From positions 1-61,949 of the IMG/VR virus record IMGVR_UViG_3300036987_000305: DNA of 61,949 nt. One strand, given 5' to 3'. This DNA is from a virus. Taxonomy: Duplodnaviria; Caudoviricetes. The notes beneath the pieces are model-generated. The model saw nothing but the letters and a program-made list of their open reading frames with translations, was not told the origin of the DNA and searched no databases. Every line of letters starts with the position of its first letter. The first letter of the stretch is position 1. Shown here in pieces: positions 3,407 through 30,745 of the stretch. The position numbers and the translations under genes were made by a program.

Positions 3407-3875
3407 TGTCGTCTTCTCCTTTCCCGTAGTGGGCGATCAGCAGCGCTTCCGCCCGATTGTGATCCTTCGCTCGCGCAAGATACTTTGCCGCGGCCGGGTA
3501 CAACCTCCTGGCCAGCGTCAAGCTGTATGCCTTGCTCTCCTGCTTCCGCTTGGCCGCGGCCTGCCCAAGCACCTTGGCCGGATAACCCAGACACTTCTTC
3601 CAAACTGCCGGTCTTACTATCCGCACTGGCCACCCTCGCGCAGCGAGTGTAGCCAGCCAGATTCCATAGTTCACTCCGAGCGCAAAGGTACTCGATACCC
3701 CTTGCATCGGCATTGACTGCTGGTATTCCAGAATCGCCACCGTGGGCACTGAGATCTTTCGAACGATCTCCTGGAGTGCACGCTCGTCTCCCGGGTAATC
3801 AAAAATCTCCACCTCGGATCCATTCCTTAAAATTGCAATCGCGCCTGTTTGCCCGGGATCGATTCCGATGATCAT
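3390..3875 (-). CDS. RuvC-like Holliday junction resolvase
   Basis: MIIGIDPGQTGAIA, ILEYQ, STFALGVNYG, VRPAVWKK, AEALLIA; AAGGAGG RBS before the ATG at 3875. Confidence 0.85.
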   Translation of the reverse strand: MIIGIDPGQTGAIAILRNGSEVEIFDYPGDERALQEIVRKISVPTVAILEYQQSMPMQGVSSTFALGVNYGIWLATLAARGWPVRIVRPAVWKKCLGYPAKVLGQAAAKRKQESKAYSLTLARRLYPAAAKYLARAKDHNRAEALLIAHYGKGEDDNAWCD

Positions 3876-3940
3876 TTTTCTTTCCTCCTTCGCTCCAGGG
3901 GTAAAAATAAAAGTTAATCGGTTTTTTCCAACATCTGGGA

Positions 3941-4045
3941 TGGGGGTGCATAAGTGCATCCTCTAGGAGGATGCACCTTCATGCACCCCCCTGAGTCCGC
4001 GGTGCATTTTGGGGGGTGCATAGGGGTGCATTTCGGTGCATTTTC
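3941..4045. repeat. Cluster of about 8 (G)GTGCA/TGCAC motifs with ~10-bp phasing; candidate replication origin
   Basis: tgggggtgca, aagtgcatc, atgcacc, atgcaccccc, ggtgcatttt, ggggggtgca, taggggtgca, tttcggtgca in non-coding DNA directly downstream of the primase-helicase. Confidence 0.6.
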
Positions 4046-4072: not shown

Positions 4073-5923
4073 CTAATCGTCGTTACTAACTCTGTTTAGC
4101 CACACTAACCCCTCCTCTACTGAAATTGCACCCACCTTCTGTAATTTTGCCCTCGTTCTCTTAAAAGCCGACTCTTTTGCGTTATCCGTAATATTTCCCA
4201 AATTAGCGTAAAAATCAGCCTTCCAATCATTAACTTTTATTTTATCCACCCCCGCCGCGCTGATCGTCATCCGGAGACAATCGAACGATAATCTCTCCTG
4301 CTTCGACAGTTTTACTGTCTTCATTACCGCGTCCAAAGCCGACGGAACCGGAACCGCGGAGCCCACTCCGAACTCTATCTCGACGTTCAGAAGGTCAAAT
4401 CCGAAAGGTTCGGGGAGCTCCCCATCTTTCTGCTTCGTGAAGGACACGACGCCTGGGCGTACTTGGATTTCGAAGTCCATCGCGGCTTTGAGGGCCGACG
4501 ACCCCCGCCCCATCTCAATCTGCTTCTTCCCCGAGTGATGCACGATGAGCATGACGCACTGAAAGGCGTCCTTGATATAGTCCACTGCGTTTATGAACGC
4601 GCCGATGTCCTTGGCGCTGTTCTCGTCCGCAGTCCCGGGGAGATGCCTGGCGAGAGTGTCTATGATTATCAGGGAGGGTTTCCCATATTCGATGGACATC
4701 TGCTCGATTTCCTGGCGCATTTTCTCCGCGGATTTCGCGTCGAACTCTATACGGGAGCGGGACACGCGAACTTTCCCAGGTTCTGCTTTGATATCGTGGT
4801 GCTTCAGCCAGGCTTTGATGCGGCGCGGGATTCCCTTCTGCCCTTCACCGGCAAGATAGAAGACCGGCCCGGGCTTGGAGACATCGTTGTTCAGCCAGGC
4901 TGTGCGGTATGCGACGGAGAGCGCGAGGGCGATCGCGAGGAAGGATTTCCCGGCGGAGGATTCGCCGAACATAAGGCCTGTGGCGGGTGTTTCTATGAGG
5001 CTGTCGATGAGGTAGTCTACGGTGATGTGTTGGGAGAGGAGGTCAAAGACATCAATGAATAGGGATCGCGGAGCTTTGGGGTGGATCGGTACGGGTGCCG
5101 CTTCTAAGTCCGCGAGCTGGGTGTCCGTGAGGGGCGGGAAAGCAAGTTCCGGGTTGGAGATTCCCGGGGGGTTGGAGCCGTAGTGGTACCCGTTGGCGGC
5201 GATGCGTGCGAGTGACTCGAAGCGATCATTGGGTTCGCAGCGGGGGTACCAGTGGGCGAGCATGAGCTGTATGGCGGTATCACAGGATACACCGTAGTCC
5301 TTGGTCTGAGCGGCGACACGATAAATGTGGTCATTACCACCCTCCCCCATCAGCGCGGGCGGGGCAAGCGATAGAAACTTGGTTGCCAGGTCGATAGCGG
5401 TGGGGGTGTCGTAGACGAATCCGGGGACGGGTGCGGCCTTTTCCCGTATAGAGGGGAGGCCGACGATGGATGTGAGCCAATCAGGGCAGTCCGCGATAGG
5501 GTGATCGGCGGCGATTGCGTAGCCGGGGGAGCAGGGGGCAACGACGAATCCGCCCTCGCCGCGGGTGTCGAGTCCAACGCCGAGCTTGTCGGAAGCTGAA
5601 TTCTTGACGGCCCCGTGGTAATAGAGATGGTATCCTCCGGATACTGTGCGAACCCGCAGAGTGGGCGGGAGGACGTAGCCATTGGAAATCAGGAGGTCGT
5701 CGAGATTGTCCTCGGCGACGTCGCACTTCCCGGAGTCCACGTCAAGCACTGCGAGATTGGATTTCCCGCAGTCGATGCCCCATCCGCAGTTTGGGAACTT
5801 TGCTTTCCAGTTACGGATAGTAGTGAGGTCGGTCGAGGATTCTGCCCGCCATTTCACGAAGGGCGTCTTCCCTTTGAGAGGGAACAGGTGGAACCCACGC
5901 GCAATAAGGTCTTCAGGACCCAT
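4073..5923 (-). CDS. Bifunctional DNA primase/polymerase fused to an AAA_25/RepA-like helicase
   Basis: N-terminal WGIDCG, VLDVD, RTVSGGYHLYY, DTRGEGGFVVAP; C-terminal Walker A GESSAGKS, Walker B IIIDTL, HHSGK, RGSSAL. Confidence 0.9.
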   Translation of the reverse strand: MGPEDLIARGFHLFPLKGKTPFVKWRAESSTDLTTIRNWKAKFPNCGWGIDCGKSNLAVLDVDSGKCDVAEDNLDDLLISNGYVLPPTLRVRTVSGGYHLYYHGAVKNSASDKLGVGLDTRGEGGFVVAPCSPGYAIAADHPIADCPDWLTSIVGLPSIREKAAPVPGFVYDTPTAIDLATKFLSLAPPALMGEGGNDHIYRVAAQTKDYGVSCDTAIQLMLAHWYPRCEPNDRFESLARIAANGYHYGSNPPGISNPELAFPPLTDTQLADLEAAPVPIHPKAPRSLFIDVFDLLSQHITVDYLIDSLIETPATGLMFGESSAGKSFLAIALALSVAYRTAWLNNDVSKPGPVFYLAGEGQKGIPRRIKAWLKHHDIKAEPGKVRVSRSRIEFDAKSAEKMRQEIEQMSIEYGKPSLIIIDTLARHLPGTADENSAKDIGAFINAVDYIKDAFQCVMLIVHHSGKKQIEMGRGSSALKAAMDFEIQVRPGVVSFTKQKDGELPEPFGFDLLNVEIEFGVGSAVPVPSALDAVMKTVKLSKQERLSFDCLRMTISAAGVDKIKVNDWKADFYANLGNITDNAKESAFKRTRAKLQKVGAISVEEGLVWLNRVSNDD

Positions 5924-5960
5924 AGGTGTGTCTCCTTAATCGAGCGATGTGCTCCAAGTA

Positions 5961-6161
5961 TTAAATAAGGTCCTTCGGGTTCACCTGTAGGACTTCGGCG
6001 ACCTTGTGAATATCCTCGGCGGTCCAGGATCCGTTGGATATTTTCCAGTAGAGCCCTTGCCGGGAGATCCCGAGTCTTTCGGCGAGAGCGGCTATCGTGG
6101 ACTCTTTGTCCAGCAGAATATGCTTAATCTTGAGCCCGACGGCTTTTGGGTCGAATGGCAT
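5961..6161 (-). CDS. Small Cro/CI-like helix-turn-helix regulator
   Basis: TIAALAERLGISRQGLYWKI HTH; GGAGG RBS; first gene after the divergent promoter. Confidence 0.8.
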   Translation of the reverse strand: MPFDPKAVGLKIKHILLDKESTIAALAERLGISRQGLYWKISNGSWTAEDIHKVAEVLQVNPKDLI

Positions 6162-22309: not shown

Positions 22310-25300
22310 TTATTTTTTGTCTTCCATCTCCTTTTTTTTCCGGATGACCGGCGGCGTTATCCACCGGTTTTTCTGTAGCTTTTCGTAAACGTTCTCGTAG
22401 TCCTTCGCCGGTAGCTCTTTTTCCCATAGGATTAAAAGCGCGGCTCGCTCCGCCGATGTTGCTGCCGACCGGAAGGAGTTAACATATACGTTACCCTCTT
22501 TTCGTGTTCCCAGGTCTCTATACCGGCCGTAGAATTCCTTCAACGATTGGTTGGTCTGTCCAGTTTCCACTGCTGTGAGCCAGAGCTCTCTCGCAGTTTC
22601 GAAGTCGGCACCTTCCCCCTTGTTGGTCGCATCGATCATTTTGTCTTTCAGATCGAGGGATTTATTCGCAGCGATCTTCCGCTCCTCATTGACGACGTCC
22701 TGGGCTCTCTCCCTGGTGCCGGTATCGGACACACGAAGCAATCGACCTATCGTGTTAAACGGGACGATGCCCAGGACGTCTTTAATTTCGTTGTTCATTT
22801 CCTCGACTTTTGTGCCCTGAAACTTATATACCAGCCCCCCGAACAGGCCGTTCCAAGTCTCTTTCGACAGGGATTCAAACGCTCGCATTCCGCCTGCCTT
22901 AGCGACCTCTTCGCTCATCGTGGGCGACCCGTAATACGTGTTCACGGGGATAACTCCGTTCGCGTAGTACCGGGTCCAATCGATGACCGAAGAGATCAGA
23001 GGGTGCAGGTTGTACGGCTGCGCCCCGGTCACTAAACCCAAGGCGCCCATAGAGCCCGTGAAGTCCCGGGTGATGGCCGCGTCGACAATGGCGCCGGTCA
23101 TCTGACCGGAATAACTTTGAGGGATCGTAATAAATACCCCCTTATCGCCCAGCATCCCAATGAGCACTTGGGCTTTTTTACCAAGGATCCATTCCAGTGC
23201 TGTCCCGATCCACGCGGTAGGGATAGGGATCGTCGTGTACATTCGCCGCAGGTATCTTCCCGCTTTCTTCGCTGTCTTCGCAATCTCCCCCTCCTCCCCG
23301 CCCCACCATCCAGCGACCATCGTTGCGAAGAGGATATGGGGCATCACATTCGCGATAAAGGTTTTCATCGCATACGTGGCGGGCTTGTTCTTGATCGCTA
23401 CAGAGGTGGAGACGAGGTCCTGCGTCGCGATATTCGCGAACGGGAAAATGATCTCCGTCCACTTTGTAATCAAACCGCCCGAGAGGCTGTTCGGCGTTCC
23501 GGCGCGTTCGATAATGGCCACTGTCTTCTCGTGTTTCCCGAGGCGAATTCCGGTTGCCTGCTCTTTCAGGGTGACCGCTTCTTCCGCGGCGTACTTTGCC
23601 CAGCGCTCCCCCGCCTTCCCGAGCTTCCCGACAAAGCGAAGGTACATCGGAATCAGGAGGAAGCGGTCGAGCTTCGTCCTCTCGAGGTAGTCGATCCCGC
23701 GTTTCATGATTCCGCCCACTGTGTTGGGGTATTGAGTAGGATCCGCCATTCTCCGCAGCATCTCTTCCTCCTGCTGGTGGTATGACGTATCACTATTCCA
23801 GAATCGTTCCGCGGTCAGTTTCTTTTCGCGAAGGAGGCGCAGCTCACGCTCAGTCGTAATGCCCCAGCCGGCTTTAATGGCGTCCGTAAAGGTCCGTTTG
23901 TACCCCTTCATCAGGTATCCGGATACCTCGGGCATCTTTTGCCAGGTTCCGAAGGAGTCCCGGATAGGATTCATCAGGGTCCAGCCGAGATTCCATTGGA
24001 TGAAGAGCCTGGCGATAAAGGCCTTCCCCGCCATGCCCAGCTTCAACAAACCGTGGGCGCGATCCGGATTGAATGCCCACATATCCGCGAGCTCTTTGTC
24101 GATGTAATACCCTTCGGTCTTCCCATTTGGGGTAACAACGATCAGCCCATAGTCCGCATCGGGTGAAGGCATGAAAACTCCGCCGGCGCCAGGTCGTGCC
24201 TTGATCACGTCCGGAAGCGTTCCGTTCTGTTTCATCTCCCGAAATTCTTCCATGGTCTCGGCGACGTTGCCCTCCGTGATCAGCCCCTCAAGGACGCCCA
24301 TCTTCGTTTTATGGTGCTCGGCGGCGCGAATGAGCGCCATGCCTTTCGCCAATGTGGCGCCGAATACGTTGGCCACATCCCCGAGCATTCCGTACTGCTT
24401 GTAGATGTGCGCAGTGGGTCCGGATCCGTATCCAGTCCCGTAGACTTTGTCGATCTCGTACTCCAGATTCACGAACGTTGCGTAATCGGGGTTGTTGAGC
24501 ATGTAATCAACTAACTTTTTAGGGAGGAAGTCCGCGTCAGCGACCACGTTCAGCACATGCTTCTCGTACAGCGCCCGGAATTTAAAGGCGTAGTCGGCGA
24601 GCCTGTTGAACTTGGCGTCGCCCATATCCTGGCGCATGCGCTCCAGGTGCGCCTTGGCCGCCGGGCCACTCTCGCCCCCGGGGTTGTTAATGTCGGCGCG
24701 TTCTGTAGCAGCACGGTTTTGCCCCATGTATTCATGCAGATCAACTATGGAGATCCCCTCCTTGTCGGCGGCTATAACAATCTCATCGTCAACCTGCTTA
24801 GAGAAAGCGCTGACGATCGAATTGATATACGGCAGTTCGGTGAACCAGTATTCGATCCTGTGCTCATCGCGTACTTTTCGCCCCTCCTTGGAGAGCCGGC
24901 GGGCGATGTCAAAAGCCTTCTGTTCTTTTCGGACAAACGTCCGCATGACTTCGTGCCACAATTTCGATCGGCCGAATTTCCGCTGCTCGGTAAGAAGATT
25001 CGTTTTTAGGTTTTGGATCTCGACATCCCGTTGGGCCATGCCCCGGTAGCGCTCCCTGCGCTTGGTCATGACCATGGCGGGGTCCTTTACCAGCTCTTGG
25101 AGACCATCGTAGACTTCCTTGAAAGTCGGTTTACGGTCCAGGTAGTTGAAGAACGCCTTGGTGAATGTCGGGGCAGTGGTCTCCATCAAGCGCGGATTAT
25201 TCAGCAGTACAGAGATTGCGTCCGCATAGAGCTCCTCGGAGGACCAGCGATACCGTGTATACTTTCTATCCAGGTCGGGGTTAAAGGGCTTCCAGCGCAT

Positions 25301-28300
25301 GGAGAGCTTCTTCAGCTCCGCGATGATCGTCTCCTTCTCGAAGAGTTGCCGCTTTTGGATCTCCTCTTTCAGAAGCTCGTTAAAGCGCTTCTTGATTTCG
25401 GCTTCCGTAGCGTACTTCCCGGGCATCCGGACTTCAACGGTTTCGGTAATGGTCTTCGTTCCGATCTGCCGGCCGACGCCGCCGAGGGCCTTCACGCGCT
25501 CGTCGACGATCCCCTTCATGGCCTGGAGGACAACGGCTTTCTTCGTTGCGGAATCAGCGAGCTGCATGAAGCGGAGAATAATTGCGGGGTCGTTGGTTCG
25601 GCCGCGCATGATGTCAAGAATCATCTCCGGGGTAATGGACGTCTGCTCATACTCCGGAACCTCTTTGATGATCTCCTGAACGATAACCCTGTCTGGAATT
25701 TCCTCGGCCTTCAGCTGGCGTTCGGCTTCTGCCCGCATACGCGCGCGATCGGCATCCGTGAGAATGACGTTCGGGGAATCCGGGTATTCCGCAAGAAGAG
25801 AGTTGTCGTACTTAGACGCTGAGGCCAAGCGACCAAGTATATTCCCCCGCTTCAGATCCTTGTTAGGCAGCCAATCGGCAAGGTGGCCAATCTCGTGGGC
25901 GAGCGTCTTCGCGACGTCTGCCTGGGACATGGAGGCAAGGACGCCAATCCGGCCTTTCGCGGGAAAGAATCTACCAACGGCGCCCTTGAGGAACTTCATG
26001 ACCTTCGGGGCTTTGCCGTCCGAAAGTTCTTTGACGAGCTGGACCAGTTCCGGAAGTTCGATAGCCGAACGAACCTGTTTCAGGTAGGCTTCCCGCTGGG
26101 TTTCTGTTGACGTAGTCTCCGCATACCCACCCATATCGGCGAAGTCCAGATCTGCGGAATCCGTGCCGGTATCGACGGTTGTGCTGGTAGGATCATTGCG
26201 CAGTAACGGCAAAGCCGCAGAGCCGGCGGCTTCCCGTGTCACCTTTACAGGTTCGAAGATTGCGACTGCCTGGTAGGGCGTAGAGACAAATCCGATGTAC
26301 CCGGCCGCCTGGATTTTCTTTTCGAACAGGAGATTCCGGGCTTTATCGCCGAGGAGTTTCGCTTTCTTCATCTCCGCGTCGGTCGGGTAGAGCTTTAACG
26401 GATCCTCCCAAGAATCATACAGATCGTTTCCGTTCACCTGCGCAGAGTACCGGTATGGCCCAACGTACGGTTCCGCGGTATATGTCCCGAATCCCCAGTA
26501 GGTTTTATCCAGCCAAAGTTTTGGGTGCATCTGCTTGGAGGCACGTTCAGCACCGGCTCCCTTCGTGCCATGCTTGGACGGATCCGTCGCCTTCATTTTT
26601 TCCTGGTTCGACCAGTGCGTAAGGGTGACGATCTTCCCGCGGAATTCTTTGGGGGCGCCCTGCCCCCGGGTCTCGGACACGGCGTCTTTTTTCGCGTCCT
26701 TTAACGCTTTCTCCGCGGCTTGGTATTTTCTCATCTCCTCTTTTACCTTCTTCAGGTACTCGGTAAATCTTCGAAGAATGTTCTGATCATCCTTGCTCTG
26801 GTCCCCGAAGACAGTTCGCGTGGAGCCTCCGGTTCTTGCTTGCTCAATTCCGAGAATATCAGATTGGCTAAATCTCCCTTGCCCGTCTCGGTGAGAGCGG
26901 GAGTTGAATTGCTTGACGGTGTCATAGAGTTTTCCTTTCTTCGCCGTTACTGCCCGGCGAGCGGATACGAGGTAGTCCTCGACGTTAGCAATATCCAGGT
27001 GGGATATGCTGTTCAAAGCTAGGGTAACAGGATCCTCCGCTGCAAAAAGATCAGCTGTGGAAGAGGTATCCACTTTCGGATCCAATGCGTCGTACAGCAC
27101 CCGCACGAAGGACCACATGGTCTCCTGAACCTCCGCGACTTTCAGACCCATACTATTCGCGACTTCTCGCGCTCTCGCGGCAAAGGCTATGTACATGGGG
27201 TTATCAAGTAGCTGCTTCACCGAAGTGTTGTAGTCCCGCAGTCCGGTGATGGGGTCGGCGGGATTCAGAAGCTCGAATGCCATATGCCGGGCCACCCACA
27301 TATCCGCGGTGGCCAGATCAAGAACGCCTCTGATATTCAGGGAGTAGTTCGGTTGCTTAAAGTTCCCCAACTTCCCCAAGTACTGCCCTGAGAATACGTC
27401 GATGATCTTCTTCCGAATAACGTCAGCCCGAATCCCCGCTTTGAATTTATCGTTGAAAATCTTTTCCAGTTTCGATACGTCACTCGGGCGTTTGGCTTTA
27501 TCCCATGCCATCCAGGCGCGAAGAGCAACTTCCAGATTCTCCCCGGGTTTCATCCCGACGGACGTCGCCGCTAAAAGCTGCGCGAATGTTGCGTGCTCGT
27601 AGGGCATCGTCTCGATCGGGAAGAGATGGTTGATGAAGCGCCGGCAGTTTTCATACCAACCAAGGCCTTCTTTCCCGGCTTTGGAAATGGCGGCCATCTC
27701 CGTAGGGTCGAAGAAGTTATAGAGCTCCAGAACTTTTCGAAGCCGCTGGAGCTTTGTCTCTTCGTTCGTTCCGAACACCGCTTTGATGTTGTGGTCAGTG
27801 AACCATGCCGGCCCGGCGAGTTTGGCGATCTTCTTCCAGGCGGATCGTTCTGCTGGAGAGAGGGCGGTTTCGGCCTGCTTCAAGGCAGGATGCGCAGTCT
27901 TTCCAGACTCCAGGGCGGCCATGATCCTTCGTTCCTCATCCACTGAGGAAACTGAGGACGATGGGACCTCGTGGAATTTGTACTCCTCGTCTTCTTGTTG
28001 TCCCGGGCGAAGATCCTTAATCGCTCGAGTTTCCTGGTAGACTTTTCCCTCAAATTCTCGGTGGATCGTCTCATCAGTATGGAAGGATTTCTTGCCCACG
28101 TTCTCATCAACATCGCCGGCTTCTGCTACCGCGATCTTACTCGCCAACTCCGACCCCTGGTAAATGGCCAAATTATAGACGTTCGCATGGGAGACGATGT
28201 CCGAGTTATCCCTCAGGAACTGGAGGGTGCGCTCATAGGTCTCCGATGTTTCTTCCTGGATCCCCACGATGATGTTCGGAATGAACTTGATTCCGGTATC

Positions 28301-30745
28301 GCGGAGTTTCTGGGCGGCTTTATCGATCAGCGCTTCGGTATGCGGCTTATGAAGCGGCCGCAGAATATCGTCATTGTAGCTTTCGACGCCAAGCTCCACG
28401 AACTTTATCCCGGATTCTGCCAGCCATTCAGTATCAAACTTGTTGAAGGTCCCGGCAGTTGTCTGGATGATGAACCCATCGAAGTCGGGATTCTCAGCCT
28501 TTATCACCTTGTTAACTTCGGAAAGCATCTTATAATTCGGCGCCTGGCCAAACGTCTTATCGTTCAGATATACCAATTTCGCTTTCAACTTACCGAAAGA
28601 CCGGGCCTGTTGGAAGATGGCCTCCTTGGGCGGGGTCGTCAGGTCTTTCGGCACCGTGCAAAATGCGCACTTGAATTTACACCCTTGGGACATGGTCAAT
28701 CGTGGGATGACTTCGGATCCTTCAAAGTGCCGGTAGTCAGTGCCTTCGGTGTATTGCAGCCCGTACTTATCCGCGTAAGACTGGAGCGAATCATGCCACG
28801 TCGCATTTGGCAGATCGGCCATCTTGCTTTCGACATACCCGCCAATATCGATATTCCCAGCGTAATCAGCGGCCAGATCCTTGATCAGATTCTGATTCAC
28901 GTCGATCGCTGAGAAGACCAGGTTTGTATACCCAGACTCCGCAATGAAACGCTTCGCGGCTTCCATGTCGCGTACGACATAGACATCCGCATTCGGATTG
29001 ATGTGCGAGATAAACCCCATCCATTGCGGGATCTCCCAGAAGTCTGTTAGGCGTTTGTACCCAGGCACCGTCGCATACGTCTCATCATAATACTGCACGG
29101 ATTGGTCCGTCGGATCCGTCTTCCCGAGGAGAGTCGTTCCGAATTGGACCATGAGGGTTCTACCATCATTTGATGTAGATTGCACATCAAGATCCGGATC
29201 CGCCGATCGGCGTACCCAAGGATTGGACACGCTGTCGGTTTTCTTTACCGCGTCGGGATAAGTGAAATGCGGCCGGGAGACTGCGTTTCCGGGGATCTCG
29301 GCTGCGAGTTCCGGGGAGTATTGAACGTATTGTCCGCTTCGTCCTTGGACCTGTCCCGATACGCTTCCGCGCCCTGGAACTTCACCTTGATCCCCAAGGT
29401 CTTCAGCTCTTTGAGAAATTCTGCTCTGTCCATCCGGTACCTCCTCTAGCACGGTTTCGGTTTTGGCTTCCCCTTCTTCACTTATACCACCCCCTTCTTG
29501 CACAGTTGCCCCAGGTTGAACGATCGCGGCTGTAGACGGACCTTCAGCCGTCCCTGTTTCGGCGGTCGTTCCTGGGGCGTTTAATTCCGAAAAAGTAAAT
29601 TCTGATTTGGGCTTCGCGCTCGGGAGCATGGAGACCGGGGTGTCAGGTGCAGGCGCCGCTGGACGGACGCGATTATACACTTCTGTTGAGGTAGCCAAAG
29701 CCCCCGCCTGCAACGACCCGACTACCAGCCCCTGCGCCGCAGCTTCTGGGACTCCTTCCTTCCAGGGTTTCCCCATCGCGAGATTCGTAAAGATCTGTTC
29801 TTGCAGTGACTGGGGCATCTCCTCAAGAGCCCCTTCTTTGAATACCCCCTTAGCGATTGTCTTTCCGGCGTTCAGCAAGGTGCTACGCTCCCCCGCCCCC
29901 AGCAGGGCTTTAACCGCAGAAACTTCTACGTCCTTCAGCCCGGGGATCAGAGATGTTCCGTAAGATATGGCGGCCGTTCCGGCTCCCGCCGCTACCGCAG
30001 GTAAGATGCTTTGCCCCCAGGTACGTCCTTCTTGCCGCGCTCCTTCCTGGATCTGACCAGCTGTGATGGCCCCTTCGGAAATGGCACCAGCTTTCAAGAG
30101 CGTCTTCACCATCACGGGGGAGGAGAGGAACGCCTTGACCGCGGCAGTATCGCTAAGCGCAATCCCGGCGCGCTTCAATGCGGTGACAGCAACGGTTCGA
30201 ACCCCGCCCATTATCCCCAGCATCATCGGGGCGGATTCCAAAACCCCGCCGGCCGCGACAGACGGATCCTTGACAAGTGCCACAACGGTGTCCACGAAGC
30301 CCTTGGCTTCCGAGACACGGCGGTTTGCTTCCTTGCGCTCGGGGCTGTATTCGTCCTCGAGGATCTTCTTCGTGGTTTTTGGATCGTATCCGACCGCCTC
30401 CAGCGCTTTGCCGGTGAGATTCCCGGTGAACATATCCGCAATACCGACCATGCTCTCCCCGAACCCGACAACGCCTTTGGCCACATCCACGGCGACGTTC
30501 TTGACAGTCCCCATCGCACCATTTGGATCGGCGCCAATCGGCGCTTCAGCCGGTCTTTCCGGGACGACACTCATCGTAGTACGCGACGTGGCCATACTCT
30601 CCGGAGTGCGAACAGAGATCGTCGCACCCGTCGCGGACAGCGGACCAAGATATTCTATCCCCGACTCCTTTTCATCCAGGGGGCCGAGGTATTCTACGCC
30701 GGATTTCTCTGTAGGCAATGGCCCAAGGTACTCGACTTCAGGCAT
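22310..30745 (-). CDS. Giant polyvalent internal virion (ejection) protein: B12-type radical SAM, HhH-glycosylase-like, ART-like and zincin domains plus a helical C-terminal region
   Basis: SQGCKFKCAFC (CxxxCxxC), LNDKTF, ELGVES; GWY...LLAATS...ATADMWVAR...QETMW; LTHWS...GYIG...AIFEP; AHEIGH...EELYADA. It is the last of three ejection-type genes. Confidence 0.82.
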   Translation of the reverse strand: MPEVEYLGPLPTEKSGVEYLGPLDEKESGIEYLGPLSATGATISVRTPESMATSRTTMSVVPERPAEAPIGADPNGAMGTVKNVAVDVAKGVVGFGESMVGIADMFTGNLTGKALEAVGYDPKTTKKILEDEYSPERKEANRRVSEAKGFVDTVVALVKDPSVAAGGVLESAPMMLGIMGGVRTVAVTALKRAGIALSDTAAVKAFLSSPVMVKTLLKAGAISEGAITAGQIQEGARQEGRTWGQSILPAVAAGAGTAAISYGTSLIPGLKDVEVSAVKALLGAGERSTLLNAGKTIAKGVFKEGALEEMPQSLQEQIFTNLAMGKPWKEGVPEAAAQGLVVGSLQAGALATSTEVYNRVRPAAPAPDTPVSMLPSAKPKSEFTFSELNAPGTTAETGTAEGPSTAAIVQPGATVQEGGGISEEGEAKTETVLEEVPDGQSRISQRAEDLGDQGEVPGRGSVSGQVQGRSGQYVQYSPELAAEIPGNAVSRPHFTYPDAVKKTDSVSNPWVRRSADPDLDVQSTSNDGRTLMVQFGTTLLGKTDPTDQSVQYYDETYATVPGYKRLTDFWEIPQWMGFISHINPNADVYVVRDMEAAKRFIAESGYTNLVFSAIDVNQNLIKDLAADYAGNIDIGGYVESKMADLPNATWHDSLQSYADKYGLQYTEGTDYRHFEGSEVIPRLTMSQGCKFKCAFCTVPKDLTTPPKEAIFQQARSFGKLKAKLVYLNDKTFGQAPNYKMLSEVNKVIKAENPDFDGFIIQTTAGTFNKFDTEWLAESGIKFVELGVESYNDDILRPLHKPHTEALIDKAAQKLRDTGIKFIPNIIVGIQEETSETYERTLQFLRDNSDIVSHANVYNLAIYQGSELASKIAVAEAGDVDENVGKKSFHTDETIHREFEGKVYQETRAIKDLRPGQQEDEEYKFHEVPSSSVSSVDEERRIMAALESGKTAHPALKQAETALSPAERSAWKKIAKLAGPAWFTDHNIKAVFGTNEETKLQRLRKVLELYNFFDPTEMAAISKAGKEGLGWYENCRRFINHLFPIETMPYEHATFAQLLAATSVGMKPGENLEVALRAWMAWDKAKRPSDVSKLEKIFNDKFKAGIRADVIRKKIIDVFSGQYLGKLGNFKQPNYSLNIRGVLDLATADMWVARHMAFELLNPADPITGLRDYNTSVKQLLDNPMYIAFAARAREVANSMGLKVAEVQETMWSFVRVLYDALDPKVDTSSTADLFAAEDPVTLALNSISHLDIANVEDYLVSARRAVTAKKGKLYDTVKQFNSRSHRDGQGRFSQSDILGIEQARTGGSTRTVFGDQSKDDQNILRRFTEYLKKVKEEMRKYQAAEKALKDAKKDAVSETRGQGAPKEFRGKIVTLTHWSNQEKMKATDPSKHGTKGAGAERASKQMHPKLWLDKTYWGFGTYTAEPYVGPYRYSAQVNGNDLYDSWEDPLKLYPTDAEMKKAKLLGDKARNLLFEKKIQAAGYIGFVSTPYQAVAIFEPVKVTREAAGSAALPLLRNDPTSTTVDTGTDSADLDFADMGGYAETTSTETQREAYLKQVRSAIELPELVQLVKELSDGKAPKVMKFLKGAVGRFFPAKGRIGVLASMSQADVAKTLAHEIGHLADWLPNKDLKRGNILGRLASASKYDNSLLAEYPDSPNVILTDADRARMRAEAERQLKAEEIPDRVIVQEIIKEVPEYEQTSITPEMILDIMRGRTNDPAIILRFMQLADSATKKAVVLQAMKGIVDERVKALGGVGRQIGTKTITETVEVRMPGKYATEAEIKKRFNELLKEEIQKRQLFEKETIIAELKKLSMRWKPFNPDLDRKYTRYRWSSEELYADAISVLLNNPRLMETTAPTFTKAFFNYLDRKPTFKEVYDGLQELVKDPAMVMTKRRERYRGMAQRDVEIQNLKTNLLTEQRKFGRSKLWHEVMRTFVRKEQKAFDIARRLSKEGRKVRDEHRIEYWFTELPYINSIVSAFSKQVDDEIVIAADKEGISIVDLHEYMGQNRAATERADINNPGGESGPAAKAHLERMRQDMGDAKFNRLADYAFKFRALYEKHVLNVVADADFLPKKLVDYMLNNPDYATFVNLEYEIDKVYGTGYGSGPTAHIYKQYGMLGDVANVFGATLAKGMALIRAAEHHKTKMGVLEGLITEGNVAETMEEFREMKQNGTLPDVIKARPGAGGVFMPSPDADYGLIVVTPNGKTEGYYIDKELADMWAFNPDRAHGLLKLGMAGKAFIARLFIQWNLGWTLMNPIRDSFGTWQKMPEVSGYLMKGYKRTFTDAIKAGWGITTERELRLLREKKLTAERFWNSDTSYHQQEEEMLRRMADPTQYPNTVGGIMKRGIDYLERTKLDRFLLIPMYLRFVGKLGKAGERWAKYAAEEAVTLKEQATGIRLGKHEKTVAIIERAGTPNSLSGGLITKWTEIIFPFANIATQDLVSTSVAIKNKPATYAMKTFIANVMPHILFATMVAGWWGGEEGEIAKTAKKAGRYLRRMYTTIPIPTAWIGTALEWILGKKAQVLIGMLGDKGVFITIPQSYSGQMTGAIVDAAITRDFTGSMGALGLVTGAQPYNLHPLISSVIDWTRYYANGVIPVNTYYGSPTMSEEVAKAGGMRAFESLSKETWNGLFGGLVYKFQGTKVEEMNNEIKDVLGIVPFNTIGRLLRVSDTGTRERAQDVVNEERKIAANKSLDLKDKMIDATNKGEGADFETARELWLTAVETGQTNQSLKEFYGRYRDLGTRKEGNVYVNSFRSAATSAERAALLILWEKELPAKDYENVYEKLQKNRWITPPVIRKKKEMEDKK
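26752..26925 (-). CDS. Nested +1-frame ORF (57 aa) inside the polyvalent gene
   Basis: AGAAAGGA-7nt-ATG; MTPSSNSTPALTETGKGDLANLIFSELSKQEPEAPRELSSGTRARMIRTFFEDLPST*. Translated by hand; below the ORF-track size cutoff. Confidence 0.5.
   Translation of the reverse strand: MTPSSNSTPALTETGKGDLANLIFSELSKQEPEAPRELSSGTRARMIRTFFEDLPST
29245..29433 (-). CDS. Nested +1-frame ORF (62 aa) inside the polyvalent gene
   Basis: GAGGAGG-7nt-ATG; MDRAEFLKELKTLGIKVKFQGAEAY...; the host frame is a low-complexity G/Q/R/S linker here. Confidence 0.55.
   Translation of the reverse strand: MDRAEFLKELKTLGIKVKFQGAEAYRDRSKDEADNTFNTPRNSQPRSPETQSPGRISLIPTR

Follow-up and report, generated by a model that had tools for sequence, protein, structure and literature searches.

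A 57-codon open reading frame (ORF), which we call P0002, lies in the +1 frame within the gene for a giant phage polyvalent protein, and we consider it probably a real nested gene (probability about 0.65): a divergent member, or at least a positional orthologue, of a family of small nested genes that we define here as N3. It was found in a viral contig of 61,949 nucleotides, here called the window. In relatives of the host gene, nested +1-frame small genes are real and fall into families that we designate N1, N2, and N3, each beside a given domain. P0002 shares the position and architecture of N3, and its likeness to N3 is confined to the +1 frame.

Results

The nested ORF lies between two domains of a polyvalent protein

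The host gene, an ORF call at 22310..30745 on the minus strand, encodes a polyvalent protein of 2811 aa in a virion/tail module and adjoins genes for a tail fibre, a portal, and a terminase. Residues 685-844 form a radical SAM domain, and distant relatives of the protein bear LPD22, LPD38, DUF7178, and ART-PolyVal. P0002 occupies 26752..26925 on the minus strand (57 aa plus stop; host residues 1274-1332), with its ATG at 26925 read off the sequence. In host residue order, it is preceded by a DUF7178-like (HhH-GPD glycosylase-like) domain at 27089..27763 (minus; residues ~995-1219) and followed by an ART-PolyVal-like domain at 26261..26638 (minus; residues ~1370-1495) that begins with TLTHWS. 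The original prediction had given the same start and inter-domain placement, its peptide matches ours letter for letter, and the frame it shares with a second nested ORF at 29433 is indeed +1 of the host gene in both cases. The two helices it had proposed also recur in a single-sequence AlphaFold2 model, at residues 13-29 and 40-52 (mean pLDDT, 76.1). The ESM Atlas recognition value is 1916 for P0002 and 1850 for a real N2 member, both under the useful range. A weak Shine-Dalgarno (SD)-like site, AGAAAGGA, is present at 26933..26940 on the minus strand, with the 7-nt spacer aaactct before the ATG. Its duplex energy is -5.6 kcal/mol, whereas 22 real starts have a median of -10.25; among 135 internal ATGs, 33 (24%) pair at least as well.

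By sequence comparison, the first flanking domain is a divergent relative of DUF7178 that falls below the Pfam threshold (14.4 and 19.5 bits against PF23802, under the 27-bit curated cut-off) and is clearly homologous to members of the family, as judged by BLASTP against the Pfam DUF7178 region of protein P0005 (E = 6e-17) and tblastn against the relative L098 (E = 5e-24). It is an outlier, 24-34% identical to the family. A DUF7178 HMM built from hosts of N2 does not pick it up (E = 0.47), which places it outside the N2-host subfamily. Its C-terminal end carries an “AEVQET” motif (27119..27136, minus; alignment A8), which served as the positional landmark below. An HhH-GPD-like fold for the window domain would follow from a model of another DUF7178 subfamily, that of the N2 hosts (pLDDT, 79.9). 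VIA-align matched this model to 3n0u_A (Z = 8.5, middling for a helical protein; rmsd, 4.1; 183 aligned), and 20 of its 22 top rows are HhH-GPD glycosylases; Foldseek gave no match to the same model at E <= 0.001.

The second flanking domain aligns by BLASTP with residues 805-931 of P0005, an ART-PolyVal-bearing protein (E = 0.015), and a Pfam search that included PF18760 gave no match to the region at E <= 0.1. Its alignment (A2) shows invariant H118, Y157/Y163, and D182/D185. The available text of the polyvalent-protein paper gives the ART-PolyVal configuration as H (strand 1), Y (strand 2), and D (strand 5) (PMC5512222). Viral contigs scanned with a 601-aa stretch of the window's own protein yielded no match, nor did a phage collection searched by DNA and by protein. 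The nearest relatives of the window are at most 34% identical, and the only other occurrence, in run X2, shows no difference over the part covered. Of the further runs compared, X1 may be the source of the contig, and X3 and X4 contain almost none of it. The phage is present in groundwater and coal metagenomes.

ORF count, openness, and SD strength are at chance level

The original prediction had proposed to compare the frequency of +1-frame ORFs with codon-shuffled controls, and by this measure the host gene is ordinary. It has 5 +1-frame ATG ORFs of at least 57 aa, against 4.97 ± 1.69 expected from 1000 synonymous shuffles, and 58% of the shuffles have at least 5. The P0002 stretch stays open in 46-48% of synonymous recodings, versus 2-12% for the nested genes of N1 and N2. 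Together with the SD-like pairing, these values are what would be expected if P0002 were a chance ORF: the stretch would be nothing more than a hydrophilic inter-domain linker, and any resemblance to N3 would be a statistical accident. We regard this account as possible, if somewhat doubtful. It has a simple basis in the code: a +1 stop needs a host L, I, V, or M codon ending in TA or TG and then A or G, and +1 ATGs come from N, D, H, or Y followed by a G-codon. Linkers with few L/I/V/M and many D/N/E/G residues would therefore contain +1 ORFs without selection; the host frame over P0002 has 7 L/I/V/M in 57 residues, compared with 22% gene-wide.

Because hydrophilic linkers yield +1 ORFs automatically, the shuffle count is uninformative here, and this obvious control can wrongly reject a genuine nested gene. 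Codon-usage log-likelihood, by which P0002 ranks 3 of 38, was also dropped as a coding test because the nested genes N1 and N2 come out as noncoding by the same measure. What does exceed chance is position, combined with +1-frame likeness to a nested family conserved in relatives. With 5 ORFs over 2811 codons, the number of such ORFs expected to start within the 64-codon interval past the motif is only ~0.11, yet one does, and the same holds for 59 of 63 relatives.

The N3 family is under selection in relatives

We define N3 as the small proteins nested after “AEVQET”-type DUF7178 domains. The loci examined were 63 IMG/VR genes with an AEVQET-like motif in the host frame (62 via alignment A8, plus L098), and in 59 of them a +1 ATG ORF of at least 45 aa starts 14-77 aa past the motif. 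An iterated HMM (E <= 1e-3) unites 35 of the 45 distinct nested peptides as N3, with start offsets of 14-64 aa (median, 51) and lengths of 58-129 aa (median, 61). The start of P0002, separated from the motif by 70 residues, is within the range of the 59 loci and just beyond that of the HMM-defined members, and its 57 aa are one residue under the observed N3 range.

Across 51 pairs of members that are 61 aa long, host codon positions 1, 2, and 3 carry 768, 476, and 664 substitutions within N3 and 790, 456, and 2543 in the flanks. The third-position excess of the flanks is thus lost within N3, showing that the +1 frame is under selection in these relatives. SD pairing is generally weak in the family (median, -4.0), and 25 of 35 N3 starts are weaker than that of P0002. 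Two loci, L124 and L158, have the order DUF7178, N3, ART-PolyVal, as in the window. N3 is also present in short hosts of ~560-635 aa, two of which were scanned and gave no ART-PolyVal match; the putative partner is the glycosylase-like DUF7178 domain and not the ART-like one. Neither Pfam nor PHROG contains a family for N2 or N3.

Likeness of P0002 to N3 is confined to the +1 frame

P0002 and N3 share the +1 frame, a length of ~60 aa, an S/T-rich N-terminus followed by two helical stretches, a weak SD, and a start tens of residues past the same motif in the same domain type. They differ in that P0002 has only a partial core, “P.ELssgtrARmIrtF” versus “PELAAKQARLIQKL”, the family core used for the comparison being ..LL..L..QE.KNPELAAKQARLIQ.L... 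By Smith-Waterman alignment, z is 5.9 for L170, with none of 1000 shuffles and none of 2000 regional shuffles scoring as well, 4.85 for L164, and 4.84 for L145. MAFFT aligns P0002 co-linearly over its full length, with 33-35% identity to L170 and L164, an extent that argues against a statistical accident. So does the frame dependence: 16 of 45 comparisons with the nested peptides reach P <= 0.05 in the +1 frame, whereas the same nucleotides give 0/45 in the host frame and 1/45 in the +2 frame.

A control set of 34 +1 ORFs of at least 45 aa from 21 window genes points the same way, as P0002 ranks first on three measures. Its maximum z is 6.66 (controls: mean, 2.98; maximum, 5.80) and its match number is 15 (controls: mean, 2.7; maximum, 7), although the single control ORF at z = 5.80 is also what the chance account would allow. 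An HMM built from 16 distinct 61-aa N3 members gives P0002 3.6 bits, against 0.5 bits for the best control ORF, with E = 0.0037 for one sequence and 0.77% of 2000 shuffles attaining the score; because several families and model variants were tried, these nominal P values of 0.004-0.008 should be read as ~0.02-0.04.

This discount favors chance, as do the more general profile comparisons. Against the HMM of the whole N3 family, P0002 scores just 2.8 bits, which 14% of shuffles attain. Hhalign is not significant against alignment A9 (E = 0.4; probability, 0.15%) or against the 61-aa subgroup A11 (E = 0.18; probability, 0.33%), though the latter returns the same co-linear alignment, and BLASTP finds no alignment with L170 or L164 and a trivial one with L145. 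Likeness to the +1 ORFs of L009, L010, and L098 is not significant. An exhaustive HMMER search of 1.84 billion representatives with P0002 returned only 3 matches, all judged spurious, their weak scores being summed over tandem repeats.

The likeness might instead be inherited from an N3 gene that is no longer translated or needed. The weak SD of P0002, a codon choice with no sign of keeping the frame open, and the outlying, sub-threshold DUF7178-like domain would all suit such a relic. We nevertheless think it very improbable: at a divergence that leaves no significant host-frame likeness over the same nucleotides, +1 likeness would hardly survive unselected, nor would an intact ATG and a 57-codon frame, and weak SDs are general among N3 members. 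Membership of P0002 in N3, and its translation, seem to us the probable reading.

A sister family is predicted to bind its neighboring DUF7178 domain

N2 is a small protein of ~60 aa with the core PVTRE[NS]YLxLAYPEG, encoded either within or behind genes of another DUF7178 subfamily, after the domain. In 74 of 80 loci the DUF7178 gene continues past the domain, and N2 is there nested in the +1 frame. Programmed frameshifting was rejected as the source of N2 in view of a +1 stop 0-1 codon before the conserved ATG, a strong SD 6-9 nt upstream, and free-standing copies. Complex prediction of N2 with its DUF7178 subfamily gave ipSAE values of 0.80, 0.81, and 0.80, versus 0.01 for the best of three controls; contacts agree in at least 91%, and the partner pLDDT is at least 76. 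Among solved complexes, 58 of 80 attain this ipSAE mark, as do 2 of 110 mismatched pairs, a calibration that is only roughly valid for N2/DUF7178 because our own alignments were used. A search of the PDB by sequence found no entry like this pair. N2 is therefore predicted, from these models, to bind the neighboring DUF7178 domain, the subfamily modeled being other than that of the window.

P0002 resembles N2 in being a small protein of ~60 aa encoded in the +1 frame right after a DUF7178 domain, but shares no sequence likeness with it, and the DUF7178-like domain of the window belongs outside the subfamily found in N2 hosts. P0002 was judged not homologous to N1 or N2 by tblastn, an HMM with --max, hhalign (0.06% and 0.23%), and Smith-Waterman alignment (P >= 0.068). 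N2 and N3 likewise have no detectable likeness to each other.

Discussion

A small helical P0002 protein would be translated from an internal ATG of its own within the mRNA of the giant gene and would bind the adjoining DUF7178 domain in the producing cell. There it might act as a modulator or inhibitor, an “antidote,” or else as a subunit or chaperone. The original prediction had envisaged two nested toxin-immunity pairs within one gene. Its general design is borne out to the extent that small +1 genes do lie beside given domains in relatives and that P0002 occupies the N3 position with +1-only likeness; the immunity function is putative, and the 29433 ORF, the other proposed instance, is without relatives in N1, N2, and N3. 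The proposed history, an antidote overprinted in a linker, is likely the reverse of what occurred. The linker in the host frame over P0002 looks like read-through of a formerly separate, older small gene that overlapped the 3' end of a DUF7178 gene. More tentatively, N3 (with P0002 as a member) and N2 could both act as inhibitors by covering the DNA-binding face of DUF7178 in the producing cell, making effector and antidote inseparable, with the linkers being out-of-frame read-through of older small genes and not designed spacers.

The available text of the polyvalent-protein paper leaves overlapping genes unmentioned, with 0 occurrences of “overlapping” or “frameshift” (PMC5512222). Gene callers drop ORFs nested in longer genes.

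Among known systems, the embedded spanin genes Rz/Rz1 of phage lambda also comprise a small +1-frame gene wholly inside a larger one, and their products cooperate in lysis. The proteins and their function differ from those considered here: P0002 is hosted by an injected virion protein of several domains, and it overlaps a linker instead of a functional domain. The Ugi protein of PBS2 and the p56 protein of phi29 are small inhibitors of the host uracil-DNA glycosylase encoded by separate genes. If DUF7178 is an HhH-GPD-type glycosylase, a small acidic helical partner covering its conserved face, as in the N2 complex model, would work in the same way. The target fold differs, however; here a domain of the phage itself would be targeted, and inhibition is putative. 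Type II toxin-antitoxin and polymorphic-toxin/immunity pairs similarly combine an enzymatic effector with a small binder to which it is tightly linked, but the gene for the putative P0002 partner lies within that of the effector instead of next to it, and toxicity of the effector and its neutralization are likewise putative.

If the glycosylase-like domain is bound and controlled by these small proteins, they offer a pointer to DUF7178 function and to the means by which phages prevent an injected effector that could damage DNA from doing harm during virion assembly. The odd low-complexity linkers of polyvalent proteins would then be the shadows of overlapped genes. The N2- and N3-type arrangement recurs in considerably more than a hundred viral contigs, whose GC contents range from 0.34 to 0.71.

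A nested open reading frame in a polyvalent virion-protein gene

On the minus strand of the window, AGAAAGGA-aaactct-ATG (ATG at 26925) opens a 57-aa ORF, 26752..26925, whose peptide, here P0002, is exactly the one in the original prediction. It lies within a giant gene (22310..30745, minus strand) for a 2811-aa polyvalent protein with radical SAM, DUF7178-like, and ART-PolyVal-like domains, in a complete-looking IMG/VR virus record that carries terminase, portal, and tail-fibre genes. As had been claimed, P0002 and a 62-aa ORF at 29433 are both in frame +1 of the giant gene, and P0002 occupies an interdomain position, covering host residues 1274-1332 with the DUF7178-like domain (residues about 995-1219) and the ART-PolyVal-like domain (residues about 1370-1495, starting at TLTHWS) on either side. 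The DUF7178-like domain scores 14.4 and 19.5 bits against Pfam, below the 27-bit cut-off, and matches the DUF7178 region of P0005, a distant relative with DUF7178 and ART-PolyVal domains, by BLASTP (E 6e-17). No relative of the host protein above 34% identity was found, and a search of 1.84 billion representative proteins gave no relatives of P0002 beyond three matches, which we judged repeat-inflated and rejected. The window may derive from a groundwater sample; a sequencing run from a second study (X2, a coal metagenome) contains the same phage sequence over 22310-30745, with no differences where covered. None of the relatives scanned was seen to combine a virion polyvalent protein with a radical SAM domain, which here spans host residues 685-844 (window 28214-28693, minus strand; Pfam E 1.6e-15).

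All within-window tests of P0002 came out at chance level. The giant gene contains five +1 ATG ORFs of at least 57 aa, compared with 4.97 +/- 1.69 expected from 1000 synonymous shuffles and 4.74 from codon permutations. The original prediction, that a polyvalent effector carries its own antidotes nested in its linkers, was to be given up if such ORFs were no more frequent than in codon-shuffled controls; they are no more frequent, but the test itself is weak. The P0002 stretch stays open in 46-48% of synonymous recodings, a chance-level openness because a +1 stop requires a host L/I/V/M codon, and such codons are scarce there (7 of 57 residues, versus 22% gene-wide). Its SD-like site (-5.6 kcal/mol, versus -10.25 as the median of 22 real starts) is equaled or bettered at 33 of 135 internal ATGs. 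P0002 ranks third of 38 by codon-usage score, a test we discarded as powerless, since proven nested genes come out as noncoding by it. The ORF at 29433 (P0003; 29245-29433, minus strand, 62 aa) has the strongest SD-like site of the 135 internal ATGs (GGAGGT, 5-nt spacer, -13.3 kcal/mol), is open in 70% of synonymous redraws, and shows no likeness to the nested families N1, N2, and N3 defined below.

Signatures of nested genes in distant relatives

P0005 was used as the query to fetch distant polyvalent genes. Loci L003/L004 and L005-L008 form two clades with 74% protein identity between them. Across 2847 aligned codons, host third positions are the most variable in every 60-codon window except at two +1 ATG ORFs, N1 and N2. 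Differences between L003 and L005 in N2 (62 aa) are distributed 13/8/25 over its own codon positions, and identity, 48/62 in its own frame, is 32/62 in that of the host (Fisher P 2e-7); the corresponding differences in N1 (54-61 aa) are 6/8/15 (P 0.005). Judged by these substitution patterns, N1 and N2 are real nested genes. Each carries the +1-frame selection signature in L003 (8580-8762 and 10530-10715) and L005 (8730-8891 and 10650-10835), as in L014, a third clade with both genes (3843-4007 and 5793-5969). N1 stops exactly where the ART-like domain begins, in its first codons, and N2, with the core PVTRE[NS]YLxLAYPEG, is positioned after DUF7178. In two other relatives of P0005, L099 (7616-15148) and L002 (5097-16152), the polyvalent region is several consecutive ORFs of 780-1600 aa, not one giant ORF, which is consistent with module fusion and fission.

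N2 matches no family in Pfam or PHROG and has 40 small-protein relatives in a database of 5.8 billion clusters. Among 80 IMG/VR loci kept from 99 found, N2 lies within a longer ORF, in its +1 frame, in 74 (GC 0.34-0.65), and a DUF7178-subfamily domain lies directly upstream in 77, two of the three misses being cut by the locus end. All eight hosts sampled from the 74 nested loci pass Pfam DUF7178. Five of the six free-standing copies are directly 3' of the stop of a gene ending in DUF7178; upstream of the sixth (L052) there is no such domain. None of tblastn, an HMM search run with --max, hhalign, and Smith-Waterman shuffling linked P0002 itself to N1 or N2, so that it was rejected as a member of either, and comparison with the N2-host subfamily ruled out that the window's DUF7178-like domain belongs to it.

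The N3 family and the case for P0002

A second search, with an alignment of the window domain and that of locus L098 (35% identity), yielded 63 IMG/VR loci, all with 24-34% identity to the window domain. An AEVQET-like motif, the landmark at the domain's C-terminal end, is present in 63 of 64 hosts (L098 counted), and 59 of these 63 have a +1 ATG ORF of at least 45 aa starting 14-77 aa past it. Iterated HMM searches joined 35 of the 45 distinct peptides at this position into one family, N3, without a match in Pfam or PHROG; many members are exactly 61 aa (GC 0.40-0.64). In 51 equal-spacing pairs among 16 distinct 61-aa members, differences on host positions 1/2/3 number 768/476/664 inside N3 versus 790/456/2543 in the flanks, a codon-position pattern that, as sequence evidence, is a dual-coding signature. 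In 19 of 35 cases the host measures about 560-635 aa and N3 overlaps its 3' end; in 14, N3 lies deep inside a long polyvalent host. All four hosts tested pass Pfam DUF7178. Two loci (L124 and L158) have the order LPD22 ... DUF7178 - N3 - ... ART-PolyVal, as in the window. N3 start SDs are weak (median -4.0), 25 of 35 being weaker than that of P0002. The ten peptides outside N3 (L112, L113, L115, L118, L125, L138, L163, L165, L168, and L171), among which L113 pairs by eye with L165, L163 with L168, and L115 with L118, could belong to additional partner families or represent highly divergent N3.

P0002 resembles N3 in several comparisons. Its Smith-Waterman z is 5.9 against L170 (reached by 0 of 1000 shuffles and 0 of 2000 regional shuffles), 4.85 against L164, and 4.84 against L145; residues 18-57 alone give 4.74 against L164. 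Against the N3-position peptides, P is at most 0.05 in 16 of 45 comparisons. The same nucleotides give 0 of 45 in the host frame and 1 of 45 in the +2 frame, so host-protein homology does not account for the likeness. When 34 +1 ORFs of at least 45 aa, drawn from 21 genes of the window, are compared, P0002 comes out on top both in maximum z and in number of matches. With the HMM built from the 16 61-aa members, P0002 reaches 3.6 bits (single-sequence E 0.0037), a score equaled by 0.77% of shuffles, with the best control ORF at 0.5 bits, and MAFFT aligns P0002 co-linearly over its whole length with 33-35% identity to L170 and L164. Other results count against membership: the 35-member HMM gives 2.8 bits, equaled by 14% of shuffles; hhalign gives E 0.4 (26 of 35 members) and 0.18 (12 of 16), though with the same alignment; BLASTP against L170, L164, and L145 finds nothing beyond a trivial match to L145; and one control ORF reaches z 5.80. 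The start offset (70) and length (57) of P0002 are just outside the ranges of N3 members. As several families and models were tried, we read the nominal P for the likeness as about 0.02-0.04. By chance, about 0.11 ORFs of this size are expected to start in the positional interval (5 ORFs in 2811 codons). Taken together with the N3 likeness, this leads us to an estimated probability of about 0.65 that P0002 is a genuine nested gene.

Predicted partner domain and proposed origin

Models of the DUF7178 domain with N2, from alignments of 20 and 38 rows, score 0.80, 0.81, and 0.80, as against 0.01 for the highest-scoring of three controls; the score mark, which 58 of 80 solved complexes but also 2 of 110 mismatched pairs attained, is only rough here because our own alignments were used. 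Contact agreement is at least 91%, partner pLDDT is at least 76, and the predicted interface takes in invariant DUF7178 residues. N2 is thus predicted to bind its own DUF7178 domain; a sequence search of the PDB found no similar structure.

The model of the N2-host DUF7178 domain (pLDDT 79.9) aligns by VIA-align with 3n0u_A (Z 8.5, rmsd 4.1, 183 aligned), and 20 of the 22 best rows belong to the HhH-GPD DNA glycosylase superfamily. A conserved T-x-D motif (TIDTH in alignment A6, TADMW in the window) may correspond to the catalytic-Asp motif of that superfamily. The earlier label "glycosylase-like" is plausible, but not settled, since Foldseek with this model gave no match at E<=0.001.

In the literature covered, which included passages of PMC13299392, we found no paper with "DUF7178" and no report of nested genes in polyvalent proteins; the founding polyvalent-protein paper, in the passages covered, has 0 occurrences of "overlapping" or "frameshift" (PMC5512222). 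In the ancestral unit that we propose, a small partner gene would have lain across the 3' end of a DUF7178 gene. After fusion of the latter to downstream modules, the host reading frame would have continued across the small gene, creating the apparent linker, with the small protein still translated from its own ATG. This protein would bind the glycosylase-like domain, as the model predicts for N2, and may inhibit, chaperone, or complete it. The ART-like neighbor of P0002 is probably incidental; the nested gene that adjoins the ART-like domain in other clades is a different one, N1.
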